Of a stretch of 64,000 bases of DNA, positions 37,742 to 58,862 are shown piece by piece. Within the stretch, counting starts at the first letter, position 1. The number at the start of each line of letters is the position of its first letter. The stretch spans positions 459 to 64,458 of the forward strand of contig CAZWTY010000011.1 in the NCBI GenBank assembly GCA_964637565.1, in the 5' to 3' direction. Made by a program: the position numbers and the translations under genes. The DNA is from an uncultured Desulforapulum sp. (GTDB lineage: Bacteria; Desulfobacterota; Desulfobacteria; Desulfobacterales; Desulfolunaceae). Below the pieces are notes generated by a model. That model had not been told where the DNA came from and ran no database searches. It saw only the letters and a program-made list of their open reading frames with translations.

Positions 37742-37803
37742 ATGAAAGACAAACACCGTGCCTGTCGCGGTGTCCATGCGCTTAAACGTGAAAATAACAA
37801 CCC

Positions 37804-37819: not shown

Positions 37820-37843
37820 ACCAAACACACCATCTGGAGGAAA

Positions 37844-38227: not shown

Positions 38228-38273
38228 AGCCGCTTGGCAACTAACACAGAATGACGATTGAAACCAAAGTTCT

Positions 38274-38669
38274 ATGAAATGTTCCGGTTTGGATGAACGA
38301 GCCTTTACCCTGCTCGAAATTCTCATGGTGCTTCTGATCGTGGGATTTCTTACAGCAGCGTCACTCCACCGTTTCGATGCGGTGATGAAACGTCACAACC
38401 GCATGGTTGTGTTTGCGGCTGTGGCGGAACTGAACTGCCGGGAAACGTTGATCTGGGCCAATGAAAAACTGGCGTCCCGGGGATTTCGAAACGACAAGAC
38501 GGTTTTCTCCAAACTGGATACGGACCTTGGAAAGGATTATTCCTGGAAAACACAGTCGCCCGCCATCAACGGCGGGCTGCTTGTGTTCCAGGAAAAACTT
38601 GATTTCAATCTGAAACGAATGCCGTCGAACGATACAAGCCCTGGAAAGTGGACTGCCGATGGACCCTGA
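38274..38669 (+). CDS. Pilin paralog with Ala at the -1 position
   Basis: 'MKCSGLDERA|FTLLEILMVLLIVGFL'. The globular part aligns with the preceding pilin: AELNGRE/AELNCRE, LGDDYSW/LGKDYSW, APGIW/SPGKW. Confidence 0.75.
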   Translation: MKCSGLDERAFTLLEILMVLLIVGFLTAASLHRFDAVMKRHNRMVVFAAVAELNCRETLIWANEKLASRGFRNDKTVFSKLDTDLGKDYSWKTQSPAINGGLLVFQEKLDFNLKRMPSNDTSPGKWTADGP

Positions 38670-39081
38670 CCAAAAAATTCAGGAAGCGGGATTCACCACG
38701 GTTGAAATCATCGCCGTTCTGCTTCTTCTGGCCGTGATTACCGCCGTGATTGTTTCAAGGTATTCTACAGGTACGGTGGATGCGGCGGCCAGTGCGGACA
38801 AGCTGAAAGTCTACCTCCGCTATACCCAGATGCGCGCCATGAATTCCGATGTGTCCTGGGGAATGAGTTTCAGCGGGACAGGTTACAGCCTGATCCGGGA
38901 CATGGGCGGGACACAGACGGTTCAAACTCTGCCGGGAGAAAGCGACACGTCTGTGTCGTTGCCCGTTTCTGTTACAGGTTCTGTCCAGTTCGACACCTGG
39001 GGAAGACCTTCAGGGCTTGATTCCATCTCCCTTGGAAACGTGACGGTGACCATCACTCCGGATACGGGGTTTATTCCATGA
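38659..39081 (+). CDS. Minor pilin / pseudopilin
   Basis: '...QEAG|FTTVEIIAVLLLLAVITAVIV', a class III signal. Confidence 0.75.
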   Translation: MDPDQKIQEAGFTTVEIIAVLLLLAVITAVIVSRYSTGTVDAAASADKLKVYLRYTQMRAMNSDVSWGMSFSGTGYSLIRDMGGTQTVQTLPGESDTSVSLPVSVTGSVQFDTWGRPSGLDSISLGNVTVTITPDTGFIP

Positions 39082-39488
39082 ATGACAGCCGGGGCATGAC
39101 CCTTGTGGAAATATTGGCCGGGCTCGTGATTCTGTCCATCGTGGCCCTGGTGGCCCTGAGGTATCTTGGCACGGGCCTTACAGCCAGCGGCAACAGCGTG
39201 GCCCATGTCAGGGAACAGGAGCAGGTGGCTACGGTGATGGAACGGATCAACGTGGAATACAGCCGACTTGAGAAGACCGATCCCGGCGCGCTGGCCACAC
39301 TGAAAGCCGCCATCGGAGCCGAAGGTTCAGACCAGGACAACGAATTCGGATCGTACTCGGTCGTCAGAAACAAGTATATCGGTTTCAACGCTTCCCAGGT
39401 GGAAATTGACGACAATGTCAACCTGAATGTCCTGAAAGTCAAGGTCAAGGTCGGTTCGCGCCAGTTGGTCTCGATTTTCACGATGTAA
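39078..39488 (+). CDS. Minor pilin / pseudopilin
   Basis: 'MNDSRG|MTLVEILAGLVILSIVAL', a class III signal. Confidence 0.75.
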   Translation: MNDSRGMTLVEILAGLVILSIVALVALRYLGTGLTASGNSVAHVREQEQVATVMERINVEYSRLEKTDPGALATLKAAIGAEGSDQDNEFGSYSVVRNKYIGFNASQVEIDDNVNLNVLKVKVKVGSRQLVSIFTM

Positions 39489-39518
39489 ACCACACCCTAT
39501 CCTGTGAGGGCAGGCCCC

Positions 39519-40118
39519 ATGATTTTCTTCAGCCGCAACCGTATAAAGGGTGACCAGCGAGGTTTCACTCTGGTTGAAATCATCGTGGTGCTTCTTCTGT
39601 CATCGATCCTTGCAGCCACCACCGGCCTGATCCTGACCACCTTTGTCAAAAGCTATGTCCTTTCCAGGCAGAGTGCAGATCTCACCCAGAAAGCCCAGCT
39701 GACCCTGAAACGGCTGAAAATTGAATTTGAGCACCTCAGCGATGTCCACACGGCCACCTCCACATCGTTGTATTATAAGGTTAAAAACGATTCAGGTGTG
39801 GAAAGTATCCGGGTCGCCGGGCTTGACGGTTCCACGGTGAAACTGGGAGACTCTCTGCCCGCAGCAGGAGGACGCATACTCCTTGATCAGGTCCAAAACT
39901 TTACTTTGAGTTATTTTGACGAGAACGGCAATCTGGCCGGAACAACCAACTGGTCTTCTTCCGGAAGCTGGAACAATCCGTCTTTCACCAGTCTTTACGC
40001 CATCAGGATCGATTTTACCCTGGATCATGAGTCCGGACCGATCCCTTTTTCAACCACGATCTACCCCAGTTTCAGGACAAGCCGGATTCCGGGGCCGCTG
40101 AACTGGAACAGTCAATAA
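39519..40118 (+). CDS. Minor pilin / pseudopilin
   Basis: 'MIFFSRNRIKGDQRG|FTLVEIIVVLLLSSILAA'. The ATG at 39519 is preferred over the GTG at 39504. Confidence 0.75.
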   Translation: MIFFSRNRIKGDQRGFTLVEIIVVLLLSSILAATTGLILTTFVKSYVLSRQSADLTQKAQLTLKRLKIEFEHLSDVHTATSTSLYYKVKNDSGVESIRVAGLDGSTVKLGDSLPAAGGRILLDQVQNFTLSYFDENGNLAGTTNWSSSGSWNNPSFTSLYAIRIDFTLDHESGPIPFSTTIYPSFRTSRIPGPLNWNSQ

Positions 40119-40127
40119 GGACCGAGG

Positions 40128-42377
40128 ATGGGTTATTTCAATTCGTTCGATACAGGATCGAAAGCAAGGGGGAGCATCACCCTCAACCTGATCGTGATTC
40201 TTGTGATAACCGGTGTGATCGGTGTCACCCTCATGTCCCTCACGTCCACCACCTTCATCCAGCAGATTCACAGTGATTCAGCCCAGCGTGCCGAGAGTCT
40301 GGCTGAATCAGGGTTCAGATATCTGGCGTCCCGTTACAGGCAGGCCGTTGACAACGAAAGTCGAAACGCCGTTCTGAAAGAACTCCACGGAAGAACGTTC
40401 TCTCTTTCAGACGGCGACGGTCGTTTTACCCTGGGGGTTTATCCTTACGTCTACATGGTGAGGACAGCGGCAAACTCGGGATCAGGGCAGGTGGGGGTGG
40501 AGTTTTTCGGCTCAAAACCCGACCACATGACCATCCCTTCAAACGGAATGATCGCTGTGCTTCTCGGTTCCAGGTACACGGTTTACAGTTACTCGTCCCT
40601 CACCGGGGACAACGTCCATTTTACCTTTGTCAATCTGGTGAACGTTTCCGACAACTCACCCGGGCTGGATACCGCCCTGTCCGTGGGAACCACAGTTTTC
40701 CCCGTGTTCCCCTCTGAAGTCAAGGTTCTGACAAACGGGGCAGGGAACAGTCTAACCGTTCCAGGTTCCGGTTCGTTCATGCCTTCTGCCGACGGTGTTT
40801 TTGAAATCATCGGGGTGAACGGAGAACGTGTCGACGGAAACGGCGTTAAAACAAAAATTTACACCTATAAAACAAGAAACGGCAACACGCTTCAGGATAT
40901 TTCAGAGTACCCGGACAACGACGCCGCCTTTTCACTGGCCCTGACAGCAACCACGAAAATTGTGGTTCATAAATCCGCTGAGATTCGATCAAAAGGGACG
41001 GTTTCTCCAGGGACCGACGCTGAAACAAACCGGGTCATGGGCCGGATGACGGCTCTCGGGTACACCCTTGAAACAGTGTCTGCCGGAGATCTGATCTACG
41101 ATACGCCGGATAACAAGCTGAAAGGGCTGATCGATTCGGCCACGGTCAACGGCGACGCCTCACTTGTGGCAGGGGGAAAGATCGGATCGGCCATGGTCTT
41201 CGATGGGGACATGGATTACATCCGCCTGGATGACCATCCGGACCTTGATCTCAGCACGGAGGGCAGCATCGGGGCATGGATCAAAGTGACGGCCTTTGAC
41301 AACAATTTTGCCGGAATCATTCGAAAAGGCGGGCTCCGGGATGATTCGGACCTGGCCTATTCCCTTGAATTTCGGGCAGACAAAAGGATCACCCTAAAAA
41401 TCGTCGGGACGACCAAGACCCTTTCCCTGGATTCGGATTCAGCCCTGTCAGCTGGTATATGGTACCATGTGGCCGGGACCTGGGGGCCAGCGGGCATGGC
41501 CATCTATGTTGACGGCATGCTGGACAGTTCCGCGGCCCAAACACTCGCTGTGAGGAACACCACGGGGACGGTTCAGATCGGAGCCCAGCTCGATGAGGTG
41601 TTCAATCCATCCCAGAAAAACAGGGGATTCCATGGAATCATGGATGAGGTCTTTATCTTCAACACCCAGAAAAATCTTTGTGAAATCCGTGACATCTATT
41701 CAAATCCCTGCAACGTGGGCTGTGATGCTTATGTCTATTACCCGTTTAGCGGAAACTACGAGGACGGAAGCGGGGAAGACAAGGCCGGAAACGACATTCA
41801 TAACGGCACCCCATACGGCACCTCTATTTCGACCGACCGTTTCGACTGCTCTCAGTGTTCCTCTCAGTACGGATTTATTGATTATGTGATAATTCCACAG
41901 GAAGCGGATTTTGATTTAACCGAATCTTTCACCATTGCTTTTTGGGTTAAAATCAGCGCACTTTCATCGATCCTTGGCAGTGATTCATTCGTTACAAAAG
42001 GCAGCAATTCATACCGGGTGACAAAAAACAGCGGGTCCAATTCCGTAAACTTCGGTACCACCGGGCTTTCGGTAGTCAATACATCGGGCAGTGTAAATAT
42101 TGGTGGAAATGTCTGGCACCATGTCGCGGTGGTGTATGACCGAGCGATTTCAGGTCCGTCCAGGAAAATAATCTATATTAATGGTGAAATGGATGTCTCC
42201 AGATCAGTCACAGGTAATCTTTCCCAGAACAACAGCAGTTTGAGATTTGGGTCAACAGGACTGTTGGTGCCATTTATCGGAAGCATCGATGATGTGGCCA
42301 TCTGGAAGCGGGCACTCACCGAGGCTGAAATTCAAAACGTAGTCAAGGGGATCAGGACAGATCCGTCTCTGCCCTGA
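40128..42377 (+). CDS. PilX-N-anchored large pilus-associated protein with two LamG (concanavalin-like lectin) domains (MshQ/tip-adhesin-like)
   Basis: 749 aa. N-terminus 'ARGSITLNLIVILVITGVIGVTLMSL' resembles the PilX_N anchor and has no Glu5. Two Laminin_G_3-like modules: '...SIGAWIKVTAFD...WYHVAGTW...IYVDGML' and '...FTIAFWVKISAL...WHHVAVVYD...IYINGEM...IDDVAIWKRALTEAEI'. Confidence 0.7.
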   Translation: MGYFNSFDTGSKARGSITLNLIVILVITGVIGVTLMSLTSTTFIQQIHSDSAQRAESLAESGFRYLASRYRQAVDNESRNAVLKELHGRTFSLSDGDGRFTLGVYPYVYMVRTAANSGSGQVGVEFFGSKPDHMTIPSNGMIAVLLGSRYTVYSYSSLTGDNVHFTFVNLVNVSDNSPGLDTALSVGTTVFPVFPSEVKVLTNGAGNSLTVPGSGSFMPSADGVFEIIGVNGERVDGNGVKTKIYTYKTRNGNTLQDISEYPDNDAAFSLALTATTKIVVHKSAEIRSKGTVSPGTDAETNRVMGRMTALGYTLETVSAGDLIYDTPDNKLKGLIDSATVNGDASLVAGGKIGSAMVFDGDMDYIRLDDHPDLDLSTEGSIGAWIKVTAFDNNFAGIIRKGGLRDDSDLAYSLEFRADKRITLKIVGTTKTLSLDSDSALSAGIWYHVAGTWGPAGMAIYVDGMLDSSAAQTLAVRNTTGTVQIGAQLDEVFNPSQKNRGFHGIMDEVFIFNTQKNLCEIRDIYSNPCNVGCDAYVYYPFSGNYEDGSGEDKAGNDIHNGTPYGTSISTDRFDCSQCSSQYGFIDYVIIPQEADFDLTESFTIAFWVKISALSSILGSDSFVTKGSNSYRVTKNSGSNSVNFGTTGLSVVNTSGSVNIGGNVWHHVAVVYDRAISGPSRKIIYINGEMDVSRSVTGNLSQNNSSLRFGSTGLLVPFIGSIDDVAIWKRALTEAEIQNVVKGIRTDPSLP

Positions 42378-45770: not shown

Positions 45771-45928
45771 TAATATCGTTCAGAGGAACCATCCTTAGAT
45801 ACCAGGCGTTTTAAGCATTTTCTTTGACTTTTGAAATTTTGTATATTAACTGATTAAACGTTGTCATCAAATCCAATGCCTATCACCATGCCAATATTGT
45901 TGCGCCTCAGAACGATGGAGGATTGTTT

Positions 45929-47650
45929 ATGAAATGCCCTGAATGCGGTTTTGAATGTCTTGACGGCGACTTGGAATGCCTTGCATGCGGGGTCCATATC
46001 GGTGCCGCCCTTGAAAACAAGGAAAAAGAACGCATCAGGGCCATTGAGGCCAATGAAAGAAAAGCGCAATATGAGCTTGAGCTGAAAAAGGAGCTGGGTC
46101 TTATACCCGCAGATGATGAAAAAATCACACCTGCTCAAGGGAGCACCCTTGAAGAAACGTTCAAAAAAAAGCCGTCGTGCCCTAAATGCGGGACTGAACG
46201 GAAACCTGATGCGGTGGAATGCATACGCTGCGGGGTCATTTTCGATAAATTGAAATACGGCACAAACAACGTTGCGTCAAAAAGCACTGCGCCTTCTCCT
46301 GGTCAGAAACCTTCGGATGAGTCCGTCGAATCTGTCAAACCAGCCAAGTCCATGCCTGTCTTCGATGCGGATAAAACAGATGAAATCAACCTTGAGACAC
46401 TTGATCAGCTTCTCAAAGAACATCCGGCAGAGCCCCGTGGCGATGAGGCTTCTGGAAGTGGATTAGCTGACAACACCATGCATGTGACGGGGCATGATCC
46501 GAAAGATACGGCCTCTTTTGTCAAACCTGTTCGAAATTCTCAAGAGATGCCTCCAGATGAGGGTGCGGCTGTCCCAAAACCCCCTCGGACACGTGAGTTC
46601 AACATCAGATCTTTCCAGAAAAAAGAGACGACCTGGGATATATACAGAAACAAAATAGTCCAGCGTTCAGAACATGCCATGACCAGGATCAGGGCATTGT
46701 GGAACTGGTTTGAAAATACATGCGGAAGCAGGAACAAAGCCCTTGTCAGCACCGGTATCATGCTCCTGGTCTTTGTGATTCTTTCTTTTTCACCAGCTAT
46801 ATACCACTGGAGCTCGTCTGTTTATCAAGGGTTTCAGGAGAAGGCGGAGTTGAAGCGGCAGAAAAACATCGCCAGTGAGTTTTTAAAAAATAAAGACGGA
46901 ATCACAAAAAACATCAAACAGAATCTTGAAGCGGGGAATTTCGTGGAAGCTGAAAAGATTCTGGCCTTTTACGATGTTCCTCCCTTGAAAAAGGAATTGG
47001 TTTCACTTAAAAATTTTTATGAAGAAAAACAGATTTATAGGTCACTTGGTCAGATCCCCCGTGGGCAGTTCGAAAGTCTCTTCAAAGCGTATTCCAGGCT
47101 GGCAGAGCTGAATCCTCAAAATGAATCGTACAAAGAAGGGCTCGGTAAAGCTCGGCTGGAATATGCGGAAAGCCTTTACACCAAGGCTTCGGGCTACCAC
47201 AACGCAGGCAAAAAAGATCCCGAAAAACTGGATCAGGGCATCCGCCTGATTAAAAAAGCGGTCGAGGTTATTCCTGGAGCCAGCAAATATCAAGCCCTGA
47301 AAGTCCGCATGATAAATGAGAAACTGCTTTTTTATGACGGCAACGATAAAATTGCCATGGCTGTCCGTGACGACGGCATGGGCCAAAGACTTTTCAGCGG
47401 CCAGAGAAAAATCAGCGTCTGGGTCCTTAACAGAAGCCAGGAACGGATCTTTATCAATGTTCAATATTTTACCATGCTTGGGAAAAATGGCTTGAAATAC
47501 ACGTACAACGATACTGGGAGCAAGCTCAGTGGAAAGCTGGAACCCGGTGAGCAGACATTCGGGGAACTGTATTTCAGAACCGGAACGAGTCCTGCGAAAA
47601 TTACGTTCCATCATTTGGTATGCGGTACGATATTCCGTGAATTTCCCTGA
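45929..47650 (+). CDS. Hypothetical membrane protein with two N-terminal zinc ribbons
   Basis: GGAGG RBS plus the ATG at 45929. 'CPECGFEC..CLACG' and 'CPKCGTE...CIRCG', one TM 'ALVSTGIMLLVFVILSF', and a long helical/TPR-like periplasmic part. Confidence 0.6.
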   Translation: MKCPECGFECLDGDLECLACGVHIGAALENKEKERIRAIEANERKAQYELELKKELGLIPADDEKITPAQGSTLEETFKKKPSCPKCGTERKPDAVECIRCGVIFDKLKYGTNNVASKSTAPSPGQKPSDESVESVKPAKSMPVFDADKTDEINLETLDQLLKEHPAEPRGDEASGSGLADNTMHVTGHDPKDTASFVKPVRNSQEMPPDEGAAVPKPPRTREFNIRSFQKKETTWDIYRNKIVQRSEHAMTRIRALWNWFENTCGSRNKALVSTGIMLLVFVILSFSPAIYHWSSSVYQGFQEKAELKRQKNIASEFLKNKDGITKNIKQNLEAGNFVEAEKILAFYDVPPLKKELVSLKNFYEEKQIYRSLGQIPRGQFESLFKAYSRLAELNPQNESYKEGLGKARLEYAESLYTKASGYHNAGKKDPEKLDQGIRLIKKAVEVIPGASKYQALKVRMINEKLLFYDGNDKIAMAVRDDGMGQRLFSGQRKISVWVLNRSQERIFINVQYFTMLGKNGLKYTYNDTGSKLSGKLEPGEQTFGELYFRTGTSPAKITFHHLVCGTIFREFP

Positions 47651-47661
47651 TAGAGGCAGAG

Positions 47662-47919
47662 CTAACGCGGGATCTTTGACAGTATGTCAAGGGCACGGTC
47701 ATATTCATTGGGATACAGGTCCAAGGGAACCTTGGTCAAACCACATGACGAATAGACCATATAGATAGCGCATGCCTCCTTGCAAGAGTGGCAATACCTT
47801 TCCTTGAACCGGTGGGCAATGGATTCGATTCTCATTTCATGGATAAAAAAACTGCAACGATCCAGCAGTTCGCAGGTGGAAAGGACGGTCATATCAACCC
47901 CCGAATTGTCATGTTCCAA
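47662..47919 (-). CDS. Small Cys-rich hypothetical protein (76-85 aa)
   Basis: ORF-track ORF with seven Cys, including 'CELLDRC' and 'CHSCKEAC'. The start is uncertain (47919 or 47892). I recognise no family. Confidence 0.4.
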   Translation of the reverse strand: MEHDNSGVDMTVLSTCELLDRCSFFIHEMRIESIAHRFKERYCHSCKEACAIYMVYSSCGLTKVPLDLYPNEYDRALDILSKIPR

Positions 47920-48061
47920 ACGATCGTGATGAGATGATCGTCCGGGATTGGAAAAAAAGCCCGTATCAGGAAATTCTGGTGGATTCTATCGTGTTATAAA
48001 TTTCAATGCCATCTTTTTTTACCGGTATGATAAGTGGATAAAAAAGTACGACAGGAGAATC

Positions 48062-49000
48062 ATGGACGTTTCAACTTATCTCAAAAAATCAAAGAATACG
48101 TTAATCTATCTTGGGATCGTGGCCCTGATTGCCTTCCTGAGATTCCTTTCAAGAAAGAACGCCATCGCTTTCATGCGTTCCGTGGGTTCTCTCGCATTTA
48201 TTCTTGCTAAACACGAACGAAAAAATACGATCAAGCATCTGACCATGGCCTTTGGAAAAGAAAAAACGAATGACCAGATCGAACAGCTGGCGAAAAGGGT
48301 ATTTCTGAATCTTTCCGTCTGCGTCGCAGATGCGATCAGGCTTCCGGTCATGGTCAAGGACGGATTCATAGACGAGCTTGTGACCGCAGAAGGTTTTCAT
48401 CATTTTGCAAACGCTGCGGACAGAAAAAAAGGGTTGATCGCCATGACAGGCCACTTCGGGAACTGGGAACTTCTTGGGACCTGGATTGTGAGACATGGTT
48501 ACCCCATCAAGGTTGTGGCAAAAAAATCTTATGACCCAAGACTTGACAAACTGATTGTCGATTACAGAAACCAGGCTGGATATGCAAACACCGCAAGAGG
48601 CAGCGCAACCCGTTCTGTAGTGGATGGGCTTATGCATGGAGAAACCTTCGGGCTTCTGTTTGATCTGGATACCAAGGTAAAGGGTGTTTTTGTCGATTTT
48701 TTCGGGAAGCCGGCCCACACGGCAACCATTCCCGTCATTCTCGCTACGAAAATGAACGTTCCCATTGTCCCCATATTTATCAGGCTGACCCCTGACTTTA
48801 AATATGTGATCATGTGTCGCGAAGAACTCAAACTTGTGAATACGGGAAACGAGGAACAGGATGTGATCACCAACACCCAGATCTGTTCAAACGTTTACGA
48901 GGACATGATCAGAAAATACCCTGAACAGTGGATTTGGATGCACAGGAGATGGAAAAAGAAACCAGGGGACATCCTGCCTGGCGAGAAACCTGCCAAGTGA
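48062..49000 (+). CDS. Lipid A biosynthesis (LpxL/HtrB-family) lysophospholipid acyltransferase
   Basis: N-terminal TM, 'MTGHFGNWELLG' (the HX4D/E-type motif region), and a family-typical length. Starts at the ATG at 48062. Confidence 0.75.
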   Translation: MDVSTYLKKSKNTLIYLGIVALIAFLRFLSRKNAIAFMRSVGSLAFILAKHERKNTIKHLTMAFGKEKTNDQIEQLAKRVFLNLSVCVADAIRLPVMVKDGFIDELVTAEGFHHFANAADRKKGLIAMTGHFGNWELLGTWIVRHGYPIKVVAKKSYDPRLDKLIVDYRNQAGYANTARGSATRSVVDGLMHGETFGLLFDLDTKVKGVFVDFFGKPAHTATIPVILATKMNVPIVPIFIRLTPDFKYVIMCREELKLVNTGNEEQDVITNTQICSNVYEDMIRKYPEQWIWMHRRWKKKPGDILPGEKPAK

Positions 49001-49310
49001 CCTGCTTCACTGACATGTGTTTTCAGATGGATTAAGATGCATCAAAAAGATGGGGACACGTACAGTCATGGAAATTGGGGATGACGGTGCGAAATTTTCG
49101 CGAAACCATAAAACCATTGACATTATTAGCTTTGGTATTGGATTAACGTGTTTATTGTGTTAAATTGGACACCGACAATATAGATTTAACATACGTCGGT
49201 TGGCTCCGTTCATCGTTTGAATGTAATTGTTTTGAAATTATTAAGTAAATTAATTCTTCAACGTATTGTGTGTGAATGAGCTAAAAGGCTATTTCTGGGG
49301 GGGATAGAAC

Positions 49311-51023
49311 ATGCCGGTAAATTATCGTTCTGTTTTTTGTCTTGTCTTGACGCTGGCTTTTTTACCATTGTTTTCAACAAACAGCCAGTCCGATGATTAT
49401 CAGGATTATCTGAAAGCCCAGGCCGAGGATTTCCAGTCATACAAAGATGAGCGTGACGCGGAATTCATAGGGTTTCTCAAGGACCAATGGAAGGAATACA
49501 ATATTCACAAAGGGCTGACCCCCGATACCAACCCAAAACCTGTGAAACTTCCTGTAGCCGAACCCAAAGCCGCCCCGGTTTTACCCAAAAAACTCAAAAA
49601 AGTTAAAAAAGTCGATATCCCGAAAAAGAAACCGGTTGATTTTCCCGTGGAAGTCCCTGCTGAAAAGCCCGTGGTCGATCTTGCAGAGAAGCCACCGGTC
49701 AAGGTCGAATCCCTTAAAGATCTTCCCGTTGTCAAACCTCAGGAAAAACCCTATGTAAAACCCTTTGAACGTGTGGTTGAAACACCCGTTGAAAAAAAGA
49801 CGCCGGAACCGGCACCCCAGATCGCTAAACCTGAGCCAGAAATTTACACACGGCCTGAAGAGAAACCCGTTGACAGCGAACCGGTCAAAAAAGTTTCAAA
49901 ACCCGCCCCCGTCAAAGAAGATACACGTAAAATAGCCATAAAAACAGATTTTTACATGACACCCGTGGTGATCTATGGCACGTACAACTTTCCAGTCATG
50001 AACGGGAGAGCGGTGAACAAGGAAATGATCGCCTCGTTCTGGGACAAAATGAGCCAGCTTGACTATGATTCAATCATTGCTCAGTCCCAGAAATACAGGA
50101 TTGATTTGAAACTCAATGACTGGGGGTATCATTATATTCTGTATCGGCTTGGTCTTGAACAGTACAAGGGAGACAAGAACATGGCCAATCTGTTCACTTG
50201 GTACATGTCGTCCAAGTCAGGTTATGAATCCAGAATTGGTTACAACGACACCCAGGTTTTTCTTCTCATGCCATCAAAGAACAACCTGTACAGCATTCCC
50301 TTTCTGACCTTGAACAACAAAAAATACTATTCACTGTTTTACGATGACAAACCTTCTTCATTTAAAAGTCTTTTCACCTACCAGGGAAGTTATCCTGATG
50401 CAAGGAAGTCCATGGATTTCGAACTGTCTTCATCACCGGACATTCCCAAAGTGATGAAACAGAGAAACCTTGCCTTTGAAGTGAACAAGCAAGGCGTTGA
50501 GTTCAGTGCTGTTTACAACAAGAATATCGTTGATTTTTTCAAGTATTACCCACAGACCAACATGAAGGTGTATTTCGAGTCTTTTATGTCCCCGGAATTG
50601 GAATACGCACTTCTGACTGCTCTGAAACCCATGGTTGAAGGAAAAACGGAAGCTGAAGCTGTAAACAACCTTTTGAGTTTTGTTCAAAAAGCTTTCAGTT
50701 ATAAAACGGACGATGGTCAGTTTGGACATGAAAAATACATGCTTCCTGAAGAGACCGTTTTTTATCCCTACTCGGACTGCGAGGACCGATCTTTTTTCTT
50801 TGCCTATCTTGTGCGAAAACTGGTAGGGCTTGAAGTGGTCGGGCTTGACTACCCCGGTCATGTCGCGACAGGTGTTCGTTTCAACGACAATCTTCCGGGG
50901 GATTACGTGGTAAACAACAATGTGAAATACATGGTGTGTGACCCCACATATATCAACGCCACGCTGGGCATGGCCATGCCCCAGTACAAGAAAACAAAGC
51001 CGGAAGTGGTAAAAATCAGGTAG
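49311..51023 (+). CDS. Secreted protein with Pro/Lys-rich spacer and C-terminal transglutaminase-like Cys-His-Asp core
   Basis: 570 aa. Signal peptide, about 130 aa of 'KPV/PEP/KKV' low complexity, and a C-terminal 'SDCEDRSFFFAYLVR...YPGHVATGV...VCDPT'. Confidence 0.6.
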   Translation: MPVNYRSVFCLVLTLAFLPLFSTNSQSDDYQDYLKAQAEDFQSYKDERDAEFIGFLKDQWKEYNIHKGLTPDTNPKPVKLPVAEPKAAPVLPKKLKKVKKVDIPKKKPVDFPVEVPAEKPVVDLAEKPPVKVESLKDLPVVKPQEKPYVKPFERVVETPVEKKTPEPAPQIAKPEPEIYTRPEEKPVDSEPVKKVSKPAPVKEDTRKIAIKTDFYMTPVVIYGTYNFPVMNGRAVNKEMIASFWDKMSQLDYDSIIAQSQKYRIDLKLNDWGYHYILYRLGLEQYKGDKNMANLFTWYMSSKSGYESRIGYNDTQVFLLMPSKNNLYSIPFLTLNNKKYYSLFYDDKPSSFKSLFTYQGSYPDARKSMDFELSSSPDIPKVMKQRNLAFEVNKQGVEFSAVYNKNIVDFFKYYPQTNMKVYFESFMSPELEYALLTALKPMVEGKTEAEAVNNLLSFVQKAFSYKTDDGQFGHEKYMLPEETVFYPYSDCEDRSFFFAYLVRKLVGLEVVGLDYPGHVATGVRFNDNLPGDYVVNNNVKYMVCDPTYINATLGMAMPQYKKTKPEVVKIR

Positions 51024-51040
51024 AAAACAAGGCTGTATAC

Positions 51041-51071
51041 GCTTTAGAATATTATTCAAGTATTCTAAAGC
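51041..51071. promoter_or_regulatory. Perfect 11-bp inverted repeat GCTTTAGAATA-N9-TATTCTAAAGC (hairpin or operator)
   Basis: Read directly from the sequence. Starts 18 nt after the upstream stop and lies about 90 nt before the LPP20-like gene. No U-tract follows. Confidence 0.5.
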
Positions 51072-51103
51072 ACAAGATAAAATGAAGCGCGTGTTGTGAG
51101 AGT

Positions 51104-51133
51104 TTGAACTGCAAAGTAGACTTTGCATATTAT
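51104..51133 (+). promoter_or_regulatory. Putative sigma70 promoter of the LPP20-like operon, with an embedded 7-bp inverted repeat
   Basis: TTGAAC, 18-nt spacer, TATTAT. The spacer contains TGCAAAG-taga-CTTTGCA (51110-51127). Confidence 0.4.
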
Positions 51134-51161
51134 TAATCAAAATGAAGGAGAAAAAACGGGT

Positions 51162-51749
51162 ATGAAAAAAATTATAGTGATCATGGCTGTCCTTGCTGTT
51201 GCATGTGTTGCTTTTACAGGTTGCCAAAAAACCGGCAAAGTTTCTTCCAATCTTCCTGAATGGGTTCTTGTTCCTCCTGAAGGCGGGATTTCCGGTGTGG
51301 GTTCAGCTAAGGTAGGTCCTGCCGGTATGCAGACTGCAAGAATCGAGGCCGCTGCAAACGCACGTGATGAAATTTCCCGCACTCTCAATGTCAGAGTGAA
51401 AAACATGATCAAAAATTTCACGGAAACAACGGGTGTTGGCGATGCTCAGACCGTGGACAAAGTTTTCACCAACGTATCGAAACAAGTCTCAAAAGTTGAC
51501 CTTTCAGGTTCTCAGATCAAAAAGGTGTTTCTTGATGAGAAAAACAATGAACTGCATGTTCTTGTTGCCGTTAACCCGGAAGTTGTCACCCAGGTGACCG
51601 ATGCCATGAAACAGGCCGCCATTACAAGCATGAGAAATGAACAGGCTCTCTGGCAGAAATTTCAGGCCAAAAAAGGTCACGAAGAACTGGAAAAGGAAAT
51701 TGAAAAAGAGTTTGGCGAAGCCAAAGCCACCATGTCAGATGATGAATGA
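51162..51749 (+). CDS. LPP20/FlgP-like lipoprotein
   Basis: Lipobox 'VAFTGC'. 'WVLVPPEGGISGVGSAKVGPAGMQTARIEAAANARDEISRTL' is an LPP20-type pattern. 195 aa. Confidence 0.7.
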   Translation: MKKIIVIMAVLAVACVAFTGCQKTGKVSSNLPEWVLVPPEGGISGVGSAKVGPAGMQTARIEAAANARDEISRTLNVRVKNMIKNFTETTGVGDAQTVDKVFTNVSKQVSKVDLSGSQIKKVFLDEKNNELHVLVAVNPEVVTQVTDAMKQAAITSMRNEQALWQKFQAKKGHEELEKEIEKEFGEAKATMSDDE

Positions 51750-51800
51750 TCATCTGAATTATCAAGCCTGACCAAACGATTCGCTACCATCAAAACATAC

Positions 51801-51836
51801 CAGGGTGGTGTACGCCACCCTGAATGTTTTTTTTTA
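51801..51836 (+). terminator. Intrinsic terminator/attenuator
   Basis: CAGGGTGG-tgtacg-CCACCCTG (perfect 8 bp) followed by aatg and T9. It lies between two co-oriented lipoprotein genes. Confidence 0.75.
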
Positions 51837-51852
51837 TTCGGGGGAGGACTGT

Positions 51853-52245
51853 GTGAATCATAGTAAATTGGTGATTTTTATTTCGACATGCCTTTTTTTA
51901 TTTGCTTGTACATCTGCCAAGCCTGTAATCAAACCATCATGGATTCATAACTCCAGTGTTTCTGGGAAAGTCGCAGGGATAGGCATTTGTGGAATGCATG
52001 TCAACGGGGTCAATGCCCAACGCTCTCTTGCCATTAAGCGGGCTATTGATGAAATCGCTCTCCAGCTTGGAGTCAAGGTCAACAACGTCGCCCTTGTTGG
52101 AACGAAATCCGGCGCAGGTGGTGGGAGTTCTGTTGAAAGTTACAGCTTTCAGACGGTTGAAGGGAGCGTGGTCAAGGCGGTTATCAAAGAAACCTGGAAA
52201 GATCCAAAAACCGAAGAGATATACGTCTGGATGGTGACGGAATGA
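51853..52245 (+). CDS. Small LPP20/FlgP-like lipoprotein
   Basis: GTG start after GGGGAGG. Lipobox 'LFLFAC'. 'VAGIGICGMHVNGVNAQRSLAIKRAIDEIALQLGVKV'. 130 aa. Confidence 0.6.
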   Translation: MNHSKLVIFISTCLFLFACTSAKPVIKPSWIHNSSVSGKVAGIGICGMHVNGVNAQRSLAIKRAIDEIALQLGVKVNNVALVGTKSGAGGGSSVESYSFQTVEGSVVKAVIKETWKDPKTEEIYVWMVTE

Positions 52246-52874
52246 TTCGTTACATATTTCTTCTTGTTCTGTCGATTATTTCATTTTCTGGCTGCATACT
52301 GCTTGAACGCTCCGTCAATGTCACTGTCGGGAAGTCTGATGTTGCCTATATCCATGGAACATATGCCATCATGCCTTTCCAGGATAAAAGGGAATCTGTA
52401 TCAAGAGATCTGGGATACAGCGCTGTTGACGCTATGACAGACGCTTTTGAAACTGAATTTATCGGAGCTGGTTTCAAGGTTGTCGATCGAAGGAATATCC
52501 AAAGTGCGTTGGATGAGCTTAAGTTCTCATATCAGGGAGACGTTGACCCGGATCAGAGAAAACAGATCGGTAAACTGACGAATTCGGATGTCATGGTCAT
52601 AGGGAAATTGAGAACATTTCACAATGCGTTATTTCAAAATTCCGCAAAGCCAGATAAACCGTCTAAATGCACATCCATCAGTTTTTCCGTGAAAGCGATC
52701 AATATTGAAACCGGAGAGATTGTCTGGACCGGTTCTTTGACAAAATCAACTGGTTACAAGGATGATTTCATATACGGATGCAACTGCGATGTTCTCAAAT
52801 ATTCGAACAGGGCCGCAGCCGATTTTATAAAAACCATTGTCAAAAAAATGCATATTCCACAAAACAACAACTGA
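52242..52874 (+). CDS. CsgG/FlgO/LpoB-fold-like lipoprotein
   Basis: Lipobox 'ISFSGC'. 'FIGAGFKVVDRRNIQSALDELKFSYQGDVDP...SDVMVIGKL...AINIETGEIVWTG'. ATGA overlap with the preceding gene. Confidence 0.55.
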   Translation: MIRYIFLLVLSIISFSGCILLERSVNVTVGKSDVAYIHGTYAIMPFQDKRESVSRDLGYSAVDAMTDAFETEFIGAGFKVVDRRNIQSALDELKFSYQGDVDPDQRKQIGKLTNSDVMVIGKLRTFHNALFQNSAKPDKPSKCTSISFSVKAINIETGEIVWTGSLTKSTGYKDDFIYGCNCDVLKYSNRAAADFIKTIVKKMHIPQNNN

Positions 52875-52904
52875 ATTAGCGCTTTATCCTGTTTGATGTA
52901 AACA

Positions 52905-52935
52905 AAAAGCCTTCTTTCATCAAGAAGGCTTTTTT
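52905..52935. terminator. Bidirectional intrinsic terminator between convergent lipoprotein operons
   Basis: AAAAGCCTTCTT-tcatc-AAGAAGGCTTTT, a perfect 12-bp stem with T-runs on both strands. Confidence 0.8.
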
Positions 52936-52968
52936 AATGTGATAAATTGTGAACTTTCAATGATGATG

Positions 52969-54126
52969 TTAATTGAAATACTGGATCAGTTTTTCAGAAA
53001 CTTTTTCAGAAACTTTTTTGATCGAAACATGGGAAGCTTCTTCATGATTCAATCCGGCGCCACGATCGTTTTCTGCCACCTGGCCCACCTGAGTTCCTGA
53101 AAGAGCGTCGATGATATTGAGAGACACGGTGGCTCTGGCGAATTTAAATCTTGGGTTGTTGTTTTTCACTTCATCAATTTTGACAGAACCCTGGATTGAG
53201 ACGTCCGCGTTTGATTCAAAATCTCCGATTTTAAAACCGTTGTCCGTCAATATCTCAGCGACTTTATCTCGTACCGATTTTCCGTTTGGTCCTGCAACGT
53301 CAATGTCGATAAGCATAGAAGATTTGAGATCCCAAACATTTTGAAGGATGTCTTTCATGTCATTTCGGTCAAATTCCGAAGCGAAACCGATGATTCTCAA
53401 CCGGCTGAGGGTCGCTTCTCTGCTCACCCACAGCTCAAGCACTTTTTTCAGGGGAAGAAGTTTTTGTATTTTACTTTTTGATTTATTGGACTTGTCGATG
53501 AGGATATCGATTTCCGTATCGACTTTCCGTATATCTCTTTCCCACTTCTCTTTGGCTTTTATTTTGTCAAGGGCCACCATGGTCACGTATTCGCTGCGTT
53601 CTCTTTGAGTTTCTCCAATTTGAAGTCCCTCCAGCTCAATTTCCGAAACAACCTGAACACGGGATTGAAGTGAACGGGTATAAGAGCTTCCTTTGACGGA
53701 ATCTGAAACCTGCTTGACCTTTGAAGTCACATCGCTTGAAATTTTTGCCTTGAAAATATTGGATAGTTCGGCCTTGGCCTGGTTGATGGATTCCGGTTTG
53801 GATGACCCATAACCTTTGGCTGTCAGGTAGCGGGAGGAGCTGAAATCAATTTTTTCTTCCACTACCGGAGGCACGGACGAAGGAGATGGCGTTTCAACAA
53901 TCTTTTTTGGGGGGCTGACTTTGACAGGGGCAGGGGGAGGTTCGATTTCTTCAGTCTGTTCCACTGCTGACTGTTCGACAGGTTTGTCATCCAGTTCGTC
54001 AAATGCGATTCGTGCTCTTTCATGCTGACTTTTTACAGATCTGGTTTCTTTTTTAGCAGGGGGAGCTGACACACAGGCCAGAAATGAAACAAGAAGTATT
54101 AAGAGAATGAACGATTGTTTTTTCAT
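52969..54126 (-). CDS. Large lipoprotein: Pro/Glu-rich linker, LPP20-like domain and C-terminal CsgG/LpoB-like module
   Basis: Starts at the ATG at 54126 ('MKKQSFILLILLVSFLAC'). 'YLTAKGYGSSKPESINQAKAELSNIFKAKI' is LPP20-like, and the C-terminus carries 'VAEILTDNGFKIG...ADVSIQGSVKI'. Confidence 0.55.
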   Translation of the reverse strand: MKKQSFILLILLVSFLACVSAPPAKKETRSVKSQHERARIAFDELDDKPVEQSAVEQTEEIEPPPAPVKVSPPKKIVETPSPSSVPPVVEEKIDFSSSRYLTAKGYGSSKPESINQAKAELSNIFKAKISSDVTSKVKQVSDSVKGSSYTRSLQSRVQVVSEIELEGLQIGETQRERSEYVTMVALDKIKAKEKWERDIRKVDTEIDILIDKSNKSKSKIQKLLPLKKVLELWVSREATLSRLRIIGFASEFDRNDMKDILQNVWDLKSSMLIDIDVAGPNGKSVRDKVAEILTDNGFKIGDFESNADVSIQGSVKIDEVKNNNPRFKFARATVSLNIIDALSGTQVGQVAENDRGAGLNHEEASHVSIKKVSEKVSEKLIQYFN

Positions 54127-54185
54127 ACACTGGGCTCCAGGAACTACAGTCAAATGTTTGTTAAAAGTCAATATCGATAAAAAAA

Positions 54186-55487
54186 TCAATACATCGTATC
54201 ACAAAAAACGAATTTTGTCTCTCCAGCTTTTACTGAAATTTTGTTGAGATCTTTTCTGTAACCATCGCACAGTTCAATATTGATTTGATATTCTCCGGGT
54301 GGGACAAAAGATCGTGCAATGTATATTTCCCCGGGAAGGGTCCGCCAGGATCGGGTGTCTGCTCTTTCCAGGGCGCTGGCTGCGACATTCCCTGCGATGT
54401 TGGCCATAAGGCCTGCCATGGCGCCGTAATGCTTTTCCATTTCTTTTGAGCTGGCCTGAACAACGGCCTGTTTTGCAACGGCCCTGGCAATTGCCTTGGC
54501 TGTGATTCTGAATTTTCTGTCTTCGAGATCCTTCACGGCTATACGGTTGATATCTTCGAACAATTCCGTTTCAACCTCGCATGAGTGGGCAGGAGAACTG
54601 AGAATCATTCGGCTGGTTCTGCAGGCAGGAGGGTTCACAGAATAGTCAGGAAAGGCGATGCTGATGGGACCTGTTGCCGTAACTACAGAGAATTTGTTTT
54701 CAATCTTCACGGGTGCTTTTCCATTTAAATGAACGAGGATGATTTTACCTAATGTACGTGACGTTCGGTGATCTATCATCCCGATATTTCTTTCACCGGG
54801 CACAAGCTTTATGGCTTCTGATTTTCTGTCGGCTGGAATGGAGACACGCAAGAGATCTTCGAGAAGGTAGTTCGGTGTGGGCGTCCCGTAAGCTTCCTCA
54901 TAATTTTTAAACGCTTTGAGCGCGTCATGATAAAATATATAGGCTTCACTGAATTCTTTATCTGCTTCCGAAAGAACACCGCTGATGTAACGACCCAATG
55001 CGTCTTCTTTATAGACGTTTTTCTTTTCATATTGAGCATTATATTCGCTGAGAATGATGTCAAGTCTTCTGCAATCTGCCATGGCTTCATCGAATTCACC
55101 GAGTTTGATATAGCTGAAAGCAGAGAATAGACAGATCATCGCTCTTTCAAAGTCCTCGCCCCGGTAGGGAAGGATGAAGTCGTTGGTTACAAACGACGCA
55201 GCTTCTTTTGAAAAGCTCTTGGTCCATAGATCTTGGGCAAGATGGTCCGCGTTCTGAAAAAAAAGAGTGGCTTCCTTTGGATCGTCGCACTGAAAATGAA
55301 TCATACCTGAATCAAGCATGTGAATCAGCAAGGCTTTTGGCCCATAGGCCTGTTGAGAATTTTTCAGTAACTCGATAGAACCCGGGCAATCTTTTGATGC
55401 CATGGCGTTTTGCAATGAATCATAATTGAACTTCGGTGCGCAACTGGAAACACAAAGGAAAATCAGTAAGACGAAAAAATTTTTCAT
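54186..55487 (-). CDS. Lipoprotein with TPR-like N-terminal half (resembles COG3014-type proteins)
   Basis: Starts at the ATG at 55487 ('MKNFFVLLIFLCVSSC'). 'YRGEDFERAMICLFSAFSYIKLGEFDEAMADCRRL'. 433 aa. The family assignment is from memory only. Confidence 0.5.
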   Translation of the reverse strand: MKNFFVLLIFLCVSSCAPKFNYDSLQNAMASKDCPGSIELLKNSQQAYGPKALLIHMLDSGMIHFQCDDPKEATLFFQNADHLAQDLWTKSFSKEAASFVTNDFILPYRGEDFERAMICLFSAFSYIKLGEFDEAMADCRRLDIILSEYNAQYEKKNVYKEDALGRYISGVLSEADKEFSEAYIFYHDALKAFKNYEEAYGTPTPNYLLEDLLRVSIPADRKSEAIKLVPGERNIGMIDHRTSRTLGKIILVHLNGKAPVKIENKFSVVTATGPISIAFPDYSVNPPACRTSRMILSSPAHSCEVETELFEDINRIAVKDLEDRKFRITAKAIARAVAKQAVVQASSKEMEKHYGAMAGLMANIAGNVAASALERADTRSWRTLPGEIYIARSFVPPGEYQINIELCDGYRKDLNKISVKAGETKFVFCDTMY

Positions 55488-55566
55488 GAGCCCCCATCTC
55501 ATTCAAAGAAACACGTGTGCATGTTTTCGTTATCGTTGTGAAAGTTCCCCGGATAGTTTGGCGGTT

Positions 55567-56169
55567 TTAAAAACCGATCCGGCTTTGCTTGATCAGTTTT
55601 TTTATTTTTTTCTCGCCTATCCAGACTTTTCGGTTTTTTGAAATATCAATGAGAGTGAGGTTGATCTGGTAAAATTTGACGGATTTTCCCCCTTCCTTGT
55701 TGATGATGCTGTTCAGTTCGCCATTAAGCATGAAATCGGCGCCAATCTCTTCACCGTCATACTTTGCCGTGTCCTCACTGGCGTTTGATGCCTGGTCGAA
55801 ACGTTCGTCCCTGATTTCATCGCGTTCACTTTTTCCGGCGACAAAATCAATCTCACCGGAATTCAGCAACGCTCTTTCAAGATCACGGACAAAGGTTCGT
55901 ACGTTGATATGTTCATGGCTTCTGTTTTTCACAGATCCAATTATAACGGTCGGGTTCTTCTGGTTATTGCTTTGTTTGAATTGGCTCAACCAAGGCCTCT
56001 CCAGTGCGTCCTCAATCATCTCTTCGGCGACGAGTCTTGAATCCGTGTCATTCCATTTGTCCCCCACATCCGTTACCGCGTCTGTTTCAACCCGGCTGGT
56101 CGTGACGGTCTGGCAACCTGAGATTATCAATGAGACGCAGATTGAGAACAGGAAAAAAAATTTTTTCAT
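55567..56169 (-). CDS. LpoB-like (COG3417-type) lipoprotein
   Basis: Lipobox 'IISGC'. 'PTVIIGSVKNRSHEHINVRTFVRDLERALLNSGEIDFV...ADFMLNGEL...INLTLIDISKNRKVWIG' parallels the LpoB core pattern. Confidence 0.6.
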   Translation of the reverse strand: MKKFFFLFSICVSLIISGCQTVTTSRVETDAVTDVGDKWNDTDSRLVAEEMIEDALERPWLSQFKQSNNQKNPTVIIGSVKNRSHEHINVRTFVRDLERALLNSGEIDFVAGKSERDEIRDERFDQASNASEDTAKYDGEEIGADFMLNGELNSIINKEGGKSVKFYQINLTLIDISKNRKVWIGEKKIKKLIKQSRIGF

Positions 56170-56483
56170 GGCTGAAACATCTCCTTCTTATCAATGATTA
56201 TGTGATAATAAAAAAACGATTCTAAATTAGCGCATTATCATCATTTTTTAAAGTTATTGATGAAAAAAATAGCATTTTTTTCGATTTGAATCATAGTCGA
56301 TCCGTTGATCAATGTATGTGAAATTCATTGCATGTCATCAACAGCCAAAATATTTATATGAAACATATCGGCCGGGCATGGGGTGATATTGACAAAAAAT
56401 GGTTTTCAAGGGGATCTTTTTGTGATGTGTTTTTGAATCAATTACATCGAATAATGAGTTAACATATTGAAATAAATATAATA

Positions 56484-56519
56484 ACCGCCCTCCTTGTGAG
56501 GTTTAAAAAGGAGGGCGGT
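56484..56519 (-). terminator. Strong hairpin downstream of the 116-aa gene
   Basis: ACCGCCCTCCTT / 12-nt loop / AAGGAGGGCGGT, a perfect 12-bp stem that starts 5 nt after the stop on the minus strand. Confidence 0.6.
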
Positions 56520-56524
56520 ATCTT

Positions 56525-56875
56525 TCAAAGAACGCGAGAAACGTTGATATCTTCAACCACAAAAGGCGTCGCATGGATGCCGACGCTTCCTTTTTTAACC
56601 CAGATCCGGGCGGTGGTGGCTGTTTCCCCATCAATGGTCACTGCATTGGAGAGCCGCTCGACATAGGATATGTCCTGAAGGTTGAATTCGTAATACGTTG
56701 GATGCGTTCCAAAAAGATCGGAAACAAGGATGATCTTGTTGTCACGATCCGGATGTTTGCGCGGAGAGCCTGAAAAACAGACGTGGTTTTTCCTGAGTGA
56801 AGAAATGTCCTGTTTTTCATCAAAGATTTGAATGTCGAATTTCTCTTTAAGCTGCAATAAATGATCAATGGGCAT
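56525..56875 (-). CDS. Hypothetical protein (116 aa)
   Basis: The ATG at 56875 is preceded by GGAGG with a 7-nt spacer. I recognise no motif. Confidence 0.5.
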   Translation of the reverse strand: MPIDHLLQLKEKFDIQIFDEKQDISSLRKNHVCFSGSPRKHPDRDNKIILVSDLFGTHPTYYEFNLQDISYVERLSNAVTIDGETATTARIWVKKGSVGIHATPFVVEDINVSRVL

Positions 56876-57033
56876 TTTAAAACCTCCGAAACCGATGATG
56901 TAGCCAACCCTGACAGCGGGAAGAAAATACCATGGGACATTCATAGCACAACGAAAAAACATAATTCAAATGATTTTGAGCATCGAATTTCATCTGAAAG
57001 CGCTGTGGAGTAGATGAAATATAGGAGGGGGTC

Positions 57034-57765
57034 TTAGCCATTGATTCTGTCAAGAAATTTCAGTTTCAATTTTTTCGCCCCCTCGAAAACAGCCCCGTTT
57101 GTTATTTTGTATTGTACGATTCCGCTTTCAGGAAGGATGGCCCTGCTCTCAGCTTCGGATGTGACGGATTCGTTGGATAAAATTACATTTTCCTTGATGT
57201 CGATCAGGGAATACTCAACTTTTGTGAATATTTTGATGGTCTGGGTCTCCAGAAAAAAATAGGGCATACCCAGGCCAAAAATGGTCGGAATGGTCCATCC
57301 GTTATGGTAACGGTAAACGTTCGAAAAGGAATTGAGAACAAGGACATACCTGGCCTGTTGTCTTGCCCCCATCAGACGAAGGGTTGAAAGATTGGGAAGG
57401 GACGAGACAGCGATGACCTCAACCTGGGTCAGGTTGTTTTCTTTTTTCTGGATTTCCTGTTTGAATTCATCAAAAAAAACGGTATCGATTCCGGTAAGGT
57501 TGTTGATAATCAGGAGTTTGCCTTTTTCAATGAAAAAAGAGCTTTTCATGGATGTTTTCTGGCTGATCCCCGCTTCATGGCCGCTGAGCAGCATTTCGAG
57601 TTTTTTTTCAAATTCAGGATCGTTCTTATCTTCTTTGTCTGACGGAAACAGCGTGGATGTAATGGTTTTGTTTTCAGGGTAAAATTTGGGTTCAAGGGCA
57701 CCACAGGATGAAAATAGCAGGCCGGCAAGAATCGCAAGGACAATCGGTCGGATTGTGTGAGCCAT
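57034..57765 (-). CDS. Hypothetical lipoprotein (243 aa)
   Basis: Signal plus lipobox 'LAGLLFSSC'. No recognised domain. Confidence 0.55.
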   Translation of the reverse strand: MAHTIRPIVLAILAGLLFSSCGALEPKFYPENKTITSTLFPSDKEDKNDPEFEKKLEMLLSGHEAGISQKTSMKSSFFIEKGKLLIINNLTGIDTVFFDEFKQEIQKKENNLTQVEVIAVSSLPNLSTLRLMGARQQARYVLVLNSFSNVYRYHNGWTIPTIFGLGMPYFFLETQTIKIFTKVEYSLIDIKENVILSNESVTSEAESRAILPESGIVQYKITNGAVFEGAKKLKLKFLDRING

Positions 57766-57800
57766 GGCAAATCCCCCTTGTTTTTAATATGTTAAGATCA

Positions 57801-58862
<1,062 letters not shown>

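Follow-up and report, generated by a model that had tools for sequence, protein, structure and literature searches.

LpoB is an outer-membrane activator of PBP1B, and LpoB, Lpp20, HP1454 and HP0018 have hitherto been studied singly and with puzzling or weak phenotypes. In Helicobacter pylori and Campylobacter jejuni, HP1457 and Cj0091 have been described as LpoB homologues and HP0018 and Cj0089 as homologous tetratricopeptide repeat (TPR) lipoproteins (PMC11394524, PMC3100323). Homologues of hp0018 and hp1457 share an operon in enterohepatic Helicobacter (PMC11394524), and the Lpp20 fold is reported to be common to FlgP and FlgT (PMC11756786). When a 64,000-nucleotide stretch of DNA from an uncultured Desulforapulum sp. 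(contig CAZWTY010000011.1; referred to as the window) was analyzed, six consecutive lipoprotein genes (51162-56169) were observed whose products resemble these proteins. The locus represents a variant, specific to its lineage, of a cassette that is already known but whose function is still unsolved. A first-pass annotation of the same DNA had treated the set as stand-alone and orphan, and this view had to be given up because the cassette is widespread and has members known in Helicobacter, Campylobacter and Aeromonas. The six genes (G1 to G6) and the linked gene G0 are as follows.

G0, 49311-51023, plus strand: secreted protein of 570 aa whose linker is rich in Pro/Lys and whose C-terminal domain is putatively transglutaminase-like
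G1, 51162-51749, plus strand: Lpp20-type lipoprotein, lipobox VAFTGC, anchor Cys21
G2, 51853-52245, plus strand: small LPP20-like lipoprotein of 130 aa, lipobox LFLFAC, anchor Cys19
G3, 52242-52874, plus strand: CsgG/LpoB-fold lipoprotein of 210 aa, lipobox ISFSGC, anchor Cys18
G4, 52969-54126, minus strand: HP1454-like lipoprotein, lipobox SFLAC, anchor Cys18
G5, 54186-55502, minus strand: COG3014-family lipoprotein, lipobox CVSSC, anchor Cys21
G6, 55567-56169, minus strand: LpoB-fold lipoprotein, first gene of the minus operon, lipobox IISGC, anchor Cys19

The lipoboxes of all six consecutive open reading frames (ORFs) were confirmed by reading the translations, exactly as the first-pass annotation had quoted them, and none of the six lipoproteins carries Asp at position +2 after the lipid-anchor Cys. 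The start of G2 was re-assigned to what is most likely the true start, the GTG at 51853 downstream of a GGAGGA ribosome-binding site; its counterparts in relatives are 122-146 aa long according to gene callers. The reading frames of G2 and G3 overlap by 4 bp.

Gene order was compared at 84 non-redundant loci centred on G5 homologues with 32-87 % identity, the ORFs of which were searched with the window proteins and iterated profiles. The 87 %-identical congener (L091) was left out of these counts. G6 lies immediately upstream of G5 on the same strand at 62 of the 66 evaluable loci, and G4 immediately downstream of G5 at 54 of 60. A gene for a short G1-type Lpp20 lipoprotein was found within the locus at 22 of the 39 evaluable loci. 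In 14 loci it occupies the fourth place, behind G4 and on its strand, and in five it lies upstream of G6. The partners are kept across the orders G6-G5-G4-Lpp20 and Lpp20-G6-G5-G4, across a form with all genes on one strand (G6-G5-G4-G0-x-G1-G2 in the loci L028 and L033) and across the convergent form, which is common to the window, L001, Desulfatiferula olefinivorans (L088), L089 and L091. No other recurrent gene family was found in the flanks of the 84 loci. As G0, G1 and G2 trail G4 on a single strand in L028 and L033, they belong to the cassette, and inversion of such a one-strand layout could yield the convergent form. The cassette is frequent in Desulfobacterota, in free-living sulfate reducers, in Nitrospirae/Nitrospirota and in wastewater or sediment metagenomes. 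Judged by these sequence comparisons, the core cassette is G6-G5-G4(-G1), it is ancient and widespread, and the window holds its Desulfobacterales copy. The neighbourhood comparison, which the first-pass annotation had proposed as a check, thus upheld a conserved synteny. The idea of six functionally linked lipoproteins was supported, and equal partnership of all six was not, since G3 is dispensable (see below).

In two of the related lineages, G2 and G3 are separated by an inserted gene for an MltC-like SLT lytic transglycosylase (411-412 aa; Pfam SLT, 94.8 bits). It was not found in the window, L089 or L091.

L001, 13390-14628, minus strand: SLT gene
L088, 13561-14796, minus strand: SLT gene

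The LPP20-type members are G1, G2 and G4. Against a gathering cutoff of 25.9 bits for Pfam LPP20 (PF02169), G1 scored 36.4 bits, and G2 (13.8 bits) and G4 (19.1 bits) fell below it. The G4 orthologue of L028 passes the cutoff with 29.7 bits, and PF02169 is precomputed on the G4 orthologues P0132, P0134, P0151 and P0152; the L028 orthologue of G2 reaches 21.4 bits, still under the cutoff. When the G1 and G4 family alignments were compared using hhalign, they matched with 95% probability (E 2e-8), and the iterated profiles of G1, G2 and G4 converged on one family of 105-110 ORFs in 61-62 loci. The lipobox Cys is invariant in two of the family alignments of these LPP20-type lipoproteins. The G1-family profile aligns with H. 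pylori Lpp20 (5ok8) along the entire length of that protein (residues 4-157, E 1.5e-7).

A structure model of G4 was built from its alignment (predicted local distance difference test score, pLDDT, 78). In this model the Pro-rich linker is disordered, residues of about 100-187 form an LPP20-like domain and residues 272-384 an alpha/beta domain at the C-terminus, and there are long helices besides. The top fold match of the model in the PDB using Foldseek was H. pylori HP1454 (4kzs; E 6.9e-6 over 292 columns), with a template-modelling (TM) score of 0.57 normalised to the target. At the sequence level, the match of the G4 profile to HP1454 is weak (E 0.039) and covers the first domain only. The C-terminal domain resembles LptE, PelC, CsgG and FlgT in fold, and no sequence-level similarity was found between it and G3 or G6, for which only the signal peptides aligned. 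In the loci L069, L070 and L073-L075, with the order Lpp20-(gap)-G6-G5-G4, the G4 homologues are 505-512 aa long, or about 130-170 residues longer.

G5 belongs to a large family of which 5751 clusters at 50 % identity were found (E<=1e-3). Its homologues P0035, P0037, P0051, P0061, P0071, P0088 and P0116 are named 'COG3014 family protein' in NCBI/UniRef. Pfam gave weak TPR matches only on the G5 sequence, and no NCBIfam model matched G5, G4 or G0. In the G5 model made from the alignment (pLDDT 86; predicted TM score 0.85), a TPR-like solenoid forms the N-terminal part (27-233) and a beta-sandwich that bears a long helical hairpin forms the C-terminal part. Cys21 and the signature E379-x-A-D-x-R-x-W-x-T-L-P-G are invariant in the alignment. 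When this fold was searched against the PDB, generic TPR proteins and no full-length analogue were obtained, and PDB sequence searches with G5 and its profile gave nothing meaningful.

G6 matches Pfam LpoB (PF13036) with 143.7 bits over profile positions 1-147 and is 25 % identical, end to end, to a genuine Aeromonas LpoB (E 4e-20). The hinT-ycfL-lpoB-thiK context was not found around G6; its neighbours are the COG3014 and HP1454-like genes.

G3 behaves differently from the other members. It matches Pfam CsgG with 31.5 bits (cutoff 20.8) over positions 30-150 of the 210-position profile only, scores 26.2 bits with Pfam LpoB, above the cutoff of that model, and 25.3 bits with TIGR02722. The profile match between G3 and G6 is weak (E 1e-3 over 87 columns). 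G3 is missing from L091, and its homologues at 39-48 % identity are solitary. We considered G3 as a core member of the cassette and rejected it, as these distant homologues lie in unrelated contexts without LPP20 or COG3014 genes. Neither csgE, csgF, csgA nor csgB was found among the scanned neighbours in the window or near the distant G3 homologues. On the basis of sequence and gene context, G3 is a lineage-specific and dispensable accessory.

These results agree with the first-pass annotation in that LPP20-like segments occur in three proteins (one above the cutoff and two supported by orthologue scores, profiles and alignment) and that one protein, G5, is TPR-like in its N-terminal half. 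The HMM searches that it had suggested gave LPP20 for G1, CsgG and LpoB for G3 and LpoB for G6 above cutoffs, and COG3014 through the names of homologues. The CsgG/FlgO/LpoB-like module that it had assigned to three proteins is present by sequence in G3 and G6, and in G4 at the level of the fold and not of the sequence.

G0 is linked to the set, being always located upstream of G1 and, in L028 and L033, 3' of G4 on the same strand. In an alignment of six orthologues, Cys490, His517 and Asp544 are invariant and lie in the motifs YPYSDCEDRS, YPGH and CDPT. In our own reading, these Cys-His-Asp motifs resemble those of the transglutaminase-like cysteine protease superfamily. No Pfam or NCBIfam model, Transglut_core included, matched G0 at E<=1, and the G0 profile gave low-complexity matches only against the PDB. 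In L028, a 134-aa ORF without a family match lies between G0 and G1 (11916-12320, plus strand), and genes for a CHASE2-adenylate/guanylate cyclase and a FecR-domain protein lie downstream of G2 (13612-16408, plus strand).

When the cassette is compared with H. pylori, G1 corresponds to Lpp20/HP1456 by profile, G4 to HP1454 by fold, and G6 has the LpoB fold as reported for HP1457. G5 resembles HP0018, a TPR lipoprotein described as COG3014, through family naming, architecture and synteny. H. pylori has the parts divided over two loci, whereas the window and most environmental loci have them in a single cassette with the order LpoB-like, COG3014, HP1454-like, (Lpp20). The lineage of the window further differs from H. 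pylori in having G0, the second small Lpp20 paralogue G2, G3 and the long Pro-rich linker of G4. In C. jejuni, the TPR lipoprotein Cj0089 is likewise co-transcribed with the LpoB/COG3417-type Cj0091 (PMC3100323). However, the order of the cj0089-cj0090-cj0091 operon is reversed and its middle gene encodes a 122-aa lipoprotein that is neither HP1454-like nor Lpp20. This operon is regulated by CmeR, and its reported phenotype concerns host adhesion.

A tblastn search of a plasmid collection identified a further locus in Aeromonas caviae (NZ_AP026896.1, 3085762-3096817; L090), with hinT, a COG3014 homologue, DUF1425, lpoB and a thiK-like kinase gene. The record is a PLSDB 'plasmid' of 4.9 Mb, which is chromosome-sized, and it has just 18 annotated features. 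The COG3014 homologue is 25 % identical to G5 (E 1e-23) and both share the ERADTRSW-TLP signature; DUF1425 (the YcfL family) scored 94.7 bits and LpoB 218.6 bits with TIGR02722. Thus, the order hinT-COG3014-DUF1425-lpoB extends the COG3014-LpoB pairing into true lpoB loci. G6 shares the LpoB Pfam domain with the gammaproteobacterial hinT-ycfL-lpoB-thiK locus, whereas only Aeromonas showed the DUF1425/hinT context. E. coli is not known to carry the COG3014 gene. The likeness to PelC, CsgG, LptE and FlgT lies in the fold of the G4 C-terminal domain, for CsgG also in the Pfam match of G3, and for FlgP and FlgT in the reported kinship of the Lpp20 fold; unlike in those ring-forming systems, no pelB, csgEF, lptD or flagellar partner genes were found near the cassette. 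The comparison indicates that one ancient module comprises Lpp20, HP1454, HP0018/Cj0089 and the LpoB-type proteins. This makes testable what LpoB-fold proteins do outside enterics, what purpose the vaccine antigen Lpp20 serves and how outer-membrane lipoproteins are coupled to peptidoglycan hydrolases, and the Desulfobacterales variant offers experimental handles in the candidate enzyme G0 and in the SLT transglycosylase of some relatives.

Two hairpins bear on how the genes are expressed.

52904-52934, both strands: bidirectional intrinsic-terminator-like hairpin with a 13-bp perfect stem, a 5-nt loop and A/T runs on both sides
51801-51835, plus strand: terminator-like hairpin between G1 and G2 with a 9-bp GC-rich stem followed by AATG and a T9 run

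The arms of the convergent hairpin (52904-52916 and 52922-52934; AAAAAGCCTTCTT-tcatc-AAGAAGGCTTTTT) fold with -15.3 kcal/mol (z -4.3) on one strand and -17.2 kcal/mol (z -5.7) on the other, none of 200 shuffles being as good, and the hairpin is retained between G4 and G2 in L091 with a different loop. The hairpin between G1 and G2 folds with -20.8 kcal/mol (z -5.4). As this second hairpin is strong and terminator-like, the plus unit is not a simple three-gene operon. The first-pass annotation had described two three-gene units converging on a perfect 12-bp terminator; the convergence and the perfect hairpin are real (with a stem of 13 bp), and the plus unit is split by the G1-G2 hairpin.

Transcription was assessed from assembled metatranscriptome contigs of mixed communities, which are weak evidence and indicate presence, not operon structure or expression levels. 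All genes are represented by fragments in wastewater RNA-type runs. G1 alone was assembled in every one of the four runs, and the contigs that cover it stop at 51772 and 51789, just short of the G1-G2 hairpin. This hairpin may be an attenuator that raises the dosage of G1 above that of G2 and G3.

From gene content, homology, folds, synteny and transcription we infer a localisation, a complex and a function. We hold with moderate confidence that the products of the cassette form a periplasmic complex, anchored in the outer membrane, by which peptidoglycan remodelling is regulated. The lipoproteins would be lipid-anchored at the periplasmic face of the outer membrane, where the TPR protein G5 could serve as the adaptor on which a sub-membrane complex assembles. 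Through its LpoB-fold subunit the complex would dock and tune class A penicillin-binding proteins (PBPs), and through G5 it would do the same for lytic transglycosylases or amidases, with the outcome that the outer membrane and the cell wall are kept coordinated. G0 may be a lineage-specific Cys-His-Asp enzymatic add-on for cross-linking or cleavage of proteins or peptides. The peptidoglycan role is proposed because of the SLT gene in two relatives, the kinship of G6 to LpoB and the findings on HP0018: MltD and AmiA co-precipitate with HP0018, and deletion of hp0018 leads to outer-membrane vesicles in chains and changes the shape of the cells (PMC11394524). The fold types in the cassette are those of protein interaction (TPR) and those prone to form oligomers (Lpp20, LptE, PelC and LpoB).

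Several observations weigh against this proposal. No gene for a PBP, an amidase or a transglycosylase (MltC-like included) was found in the window, and among the related lineages only two have the SLT gene. The TIGR02722 score of G6 (105.4 bits) is just under the equivalog cutoff of 110.55, and the G6-family profile scarcely matches the E. coli and Salmonella LpoB chains (E about 0.3). The link of G5 to HP0018/Cj0089 is putative, being drawn from naming, architecture and synteny. In H. pylori, hp1456 deletion gave no envelope or motility phenotype and binding between HP1454 and HP1456 was negative in two-hybrid tests (PMC11756786). In C. jejuni, no phenotype was reported for the cj0089 mutant, and Cj0089 was found in the inner-membrane fraction (PMC3100323).

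A more structural version of the peptidoglycan proposal, which we rate as distinctly unlikely, places a non-flagellar ring or lattice of a kind not seen before in the periplasm under the outer membrane, where it would be a mobile 'workbench' bringing the synthases and hydrolases of peptidoglycan into position. Its subunits would be of an Lpp20 type (G1, G2 and G4) and of an LptE/PelC/LpoB type (the C-terminal domain of G4, G6 and G3), organised by G5, and G0 would cross-link the assembly covalently or process it. If this were true, E. coli LpoB would be a stripped-down remnant of that machine.

A ring or cage that is tethered to the outer membrane and stands alone, or an assembly for transport or secretion, was also considered, as a cousin of the FlgP/FlgT/FlgO disks or of a PelC/CsgG-like export ring. 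We regard this as unlikely. It would fit the resemblance of the G4 C-terminal domain to PelC, which forms a dodecameric ring, and to CsgG, LptE and FlgT, as well as the Lpp20 fold common to the disk-forming FlgP and FlgT and the weak to moderate self-interaction of HP1454 (PMC11756786). HP0018-sfGFP forms discrete foci (PMC11394524), an assembly of fixed stoichiometry would be in keeping with four to six lipoproteins being encoded together, and the attenuator-like hairpin 3' of G1 together with the stronger RNA coverage of G1 hints at an abundant G1 subunit. However, no gene for a beta-barrel, an ATPase, a polymerase or a cargo was found in the cassette or recurring in the flanks of the 84 loci, and the sole CsgG-family match, G3, is partial, missing from the congener and solitary elsewhere. 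The transport assembly suggested in the first-pass annotation found no support, there being no beta-barrel, ATPase or substrate gene and only a partial CsgG profile match. A scaffold role as such is compatible with the peptidoglycan-regulation model rather than an alternative to it. The kinship of the Lpp20, FlgP and FlgT folds (PMC11756786) would also suit an accessory of the flagellar motor, similar to the basal disk or the H/T ring and encoded apart from the flagellar genes. FlgP and FapH were recovered with HP1454 and HP1456 by co-precipitation and gave two-hybrid signals with them (PMC11756786), and the Aeromonas LpoB has a weak FlgT_M match. Against this, motor structure, flagellar number and motility are wild-type after hp1456 deletion (PMC11756786), no window protein matches the FlgO or FlgT Pfam models at E<=1, and the cassette also accompanies a housekeeping lpoB locus in Aeromonas. 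The first-pass annotation had seen no flagellar, curli or PBP genes nearby, and none was found among the scanned neighbours (for flagellar genes, 36-64 kb of the window) or as a recurrent family in the flanks of the 84 loci. A flagellar role is therefore quite improbable in our view.

We think it improbable that the locus consists of two unrelated lipoprotein operons that merely abut. The two units have separate terminators and lie on opposite strands, the minus cassette occurs alone in Desulfoluna and in a Nitrospirae metagenome-assembled genome, and the homologues of G3 are solitary elsewhere. However, G1-type genes occur in the operon of G4 at many loci, G0-G1-G2 trail G4 in L028 and L033, the linkage persists through at least four gene orders, and a homologous domain is common to G1, G2 and G4. 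The explanation is thus largely refuted for G0, G1 and G2 and plausible for G3 alone. It is very improbable that the lipoproteins are surface-exposed adhesins or antigens. A cj0091 mutant adhered less to INT 407 cells and was poorer in early colonisation of chicks (PMC3100323), and Lpp20 is reported to be a vesicle-associated antigen. However, surface exposure of Cj0091 was never demonstrated (PMC3100323), the adhesion defects are possibly secondary to envelope defects, and the cassette is common in the free-living and environmental lineages named above.

Beyond the minus unit, two further ORFs were analyzed.

G7, 56525-56962: 145-aa ORF, with a G7-like ORF in L091
G8, 57034-57765: 243-aa protein with a lipobox (the 'seventh lipoprotein')

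No homologue of G7 or G8 was detected by the search of 89 related loci, and both were dropped as members of the system on this ground and, for G8, on its being missing from L091. L091 has the NMO gene as well as the G7-like ORF but lacks G8, which therefore marks a recent insertion or deletion and has no relation to the cassette. Of the flanking genes pointed out in the first-pass annotation, the transglutaminase-like G0 is therefore linked to the set and the seventh lipoprotein is unrelated to it.

We also analyzed a cluster at 34744-42377 that resembles a type II secretion system or type IV pilus cluster. It encodes a T2SSE ATPase, a T2SSF platform protein, a pseudopilin bearing an N-methylation motif and a protein of 749 aa in which Laminin_G_3 domains occur. 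We rejected it as a partner of the cassette because it is not recurrent near the cassette elsewhere (flanks of the 84 loci).

Two genes lie upstream of G0 (45923-49000). One encodes a membrane protein of 575 aa with a double zinc ribbon, the other an LpxL-type lipid A acyltransferase (Pfam 167.7 bits). This pair is syntenic with the cluster in L001, L088, L089 and L091 only, and might be linked to it through a role in the envelope. The G+C content is 0.43-0.46 at about 46000-58000 of the window and 0.50-0.57 over most of the first 44 kb, in which two 2-kb bins have lower values (0.46 and 0.49). The low-G+C stretch is probably not a recent island, since the gene order there is kept in relatives.

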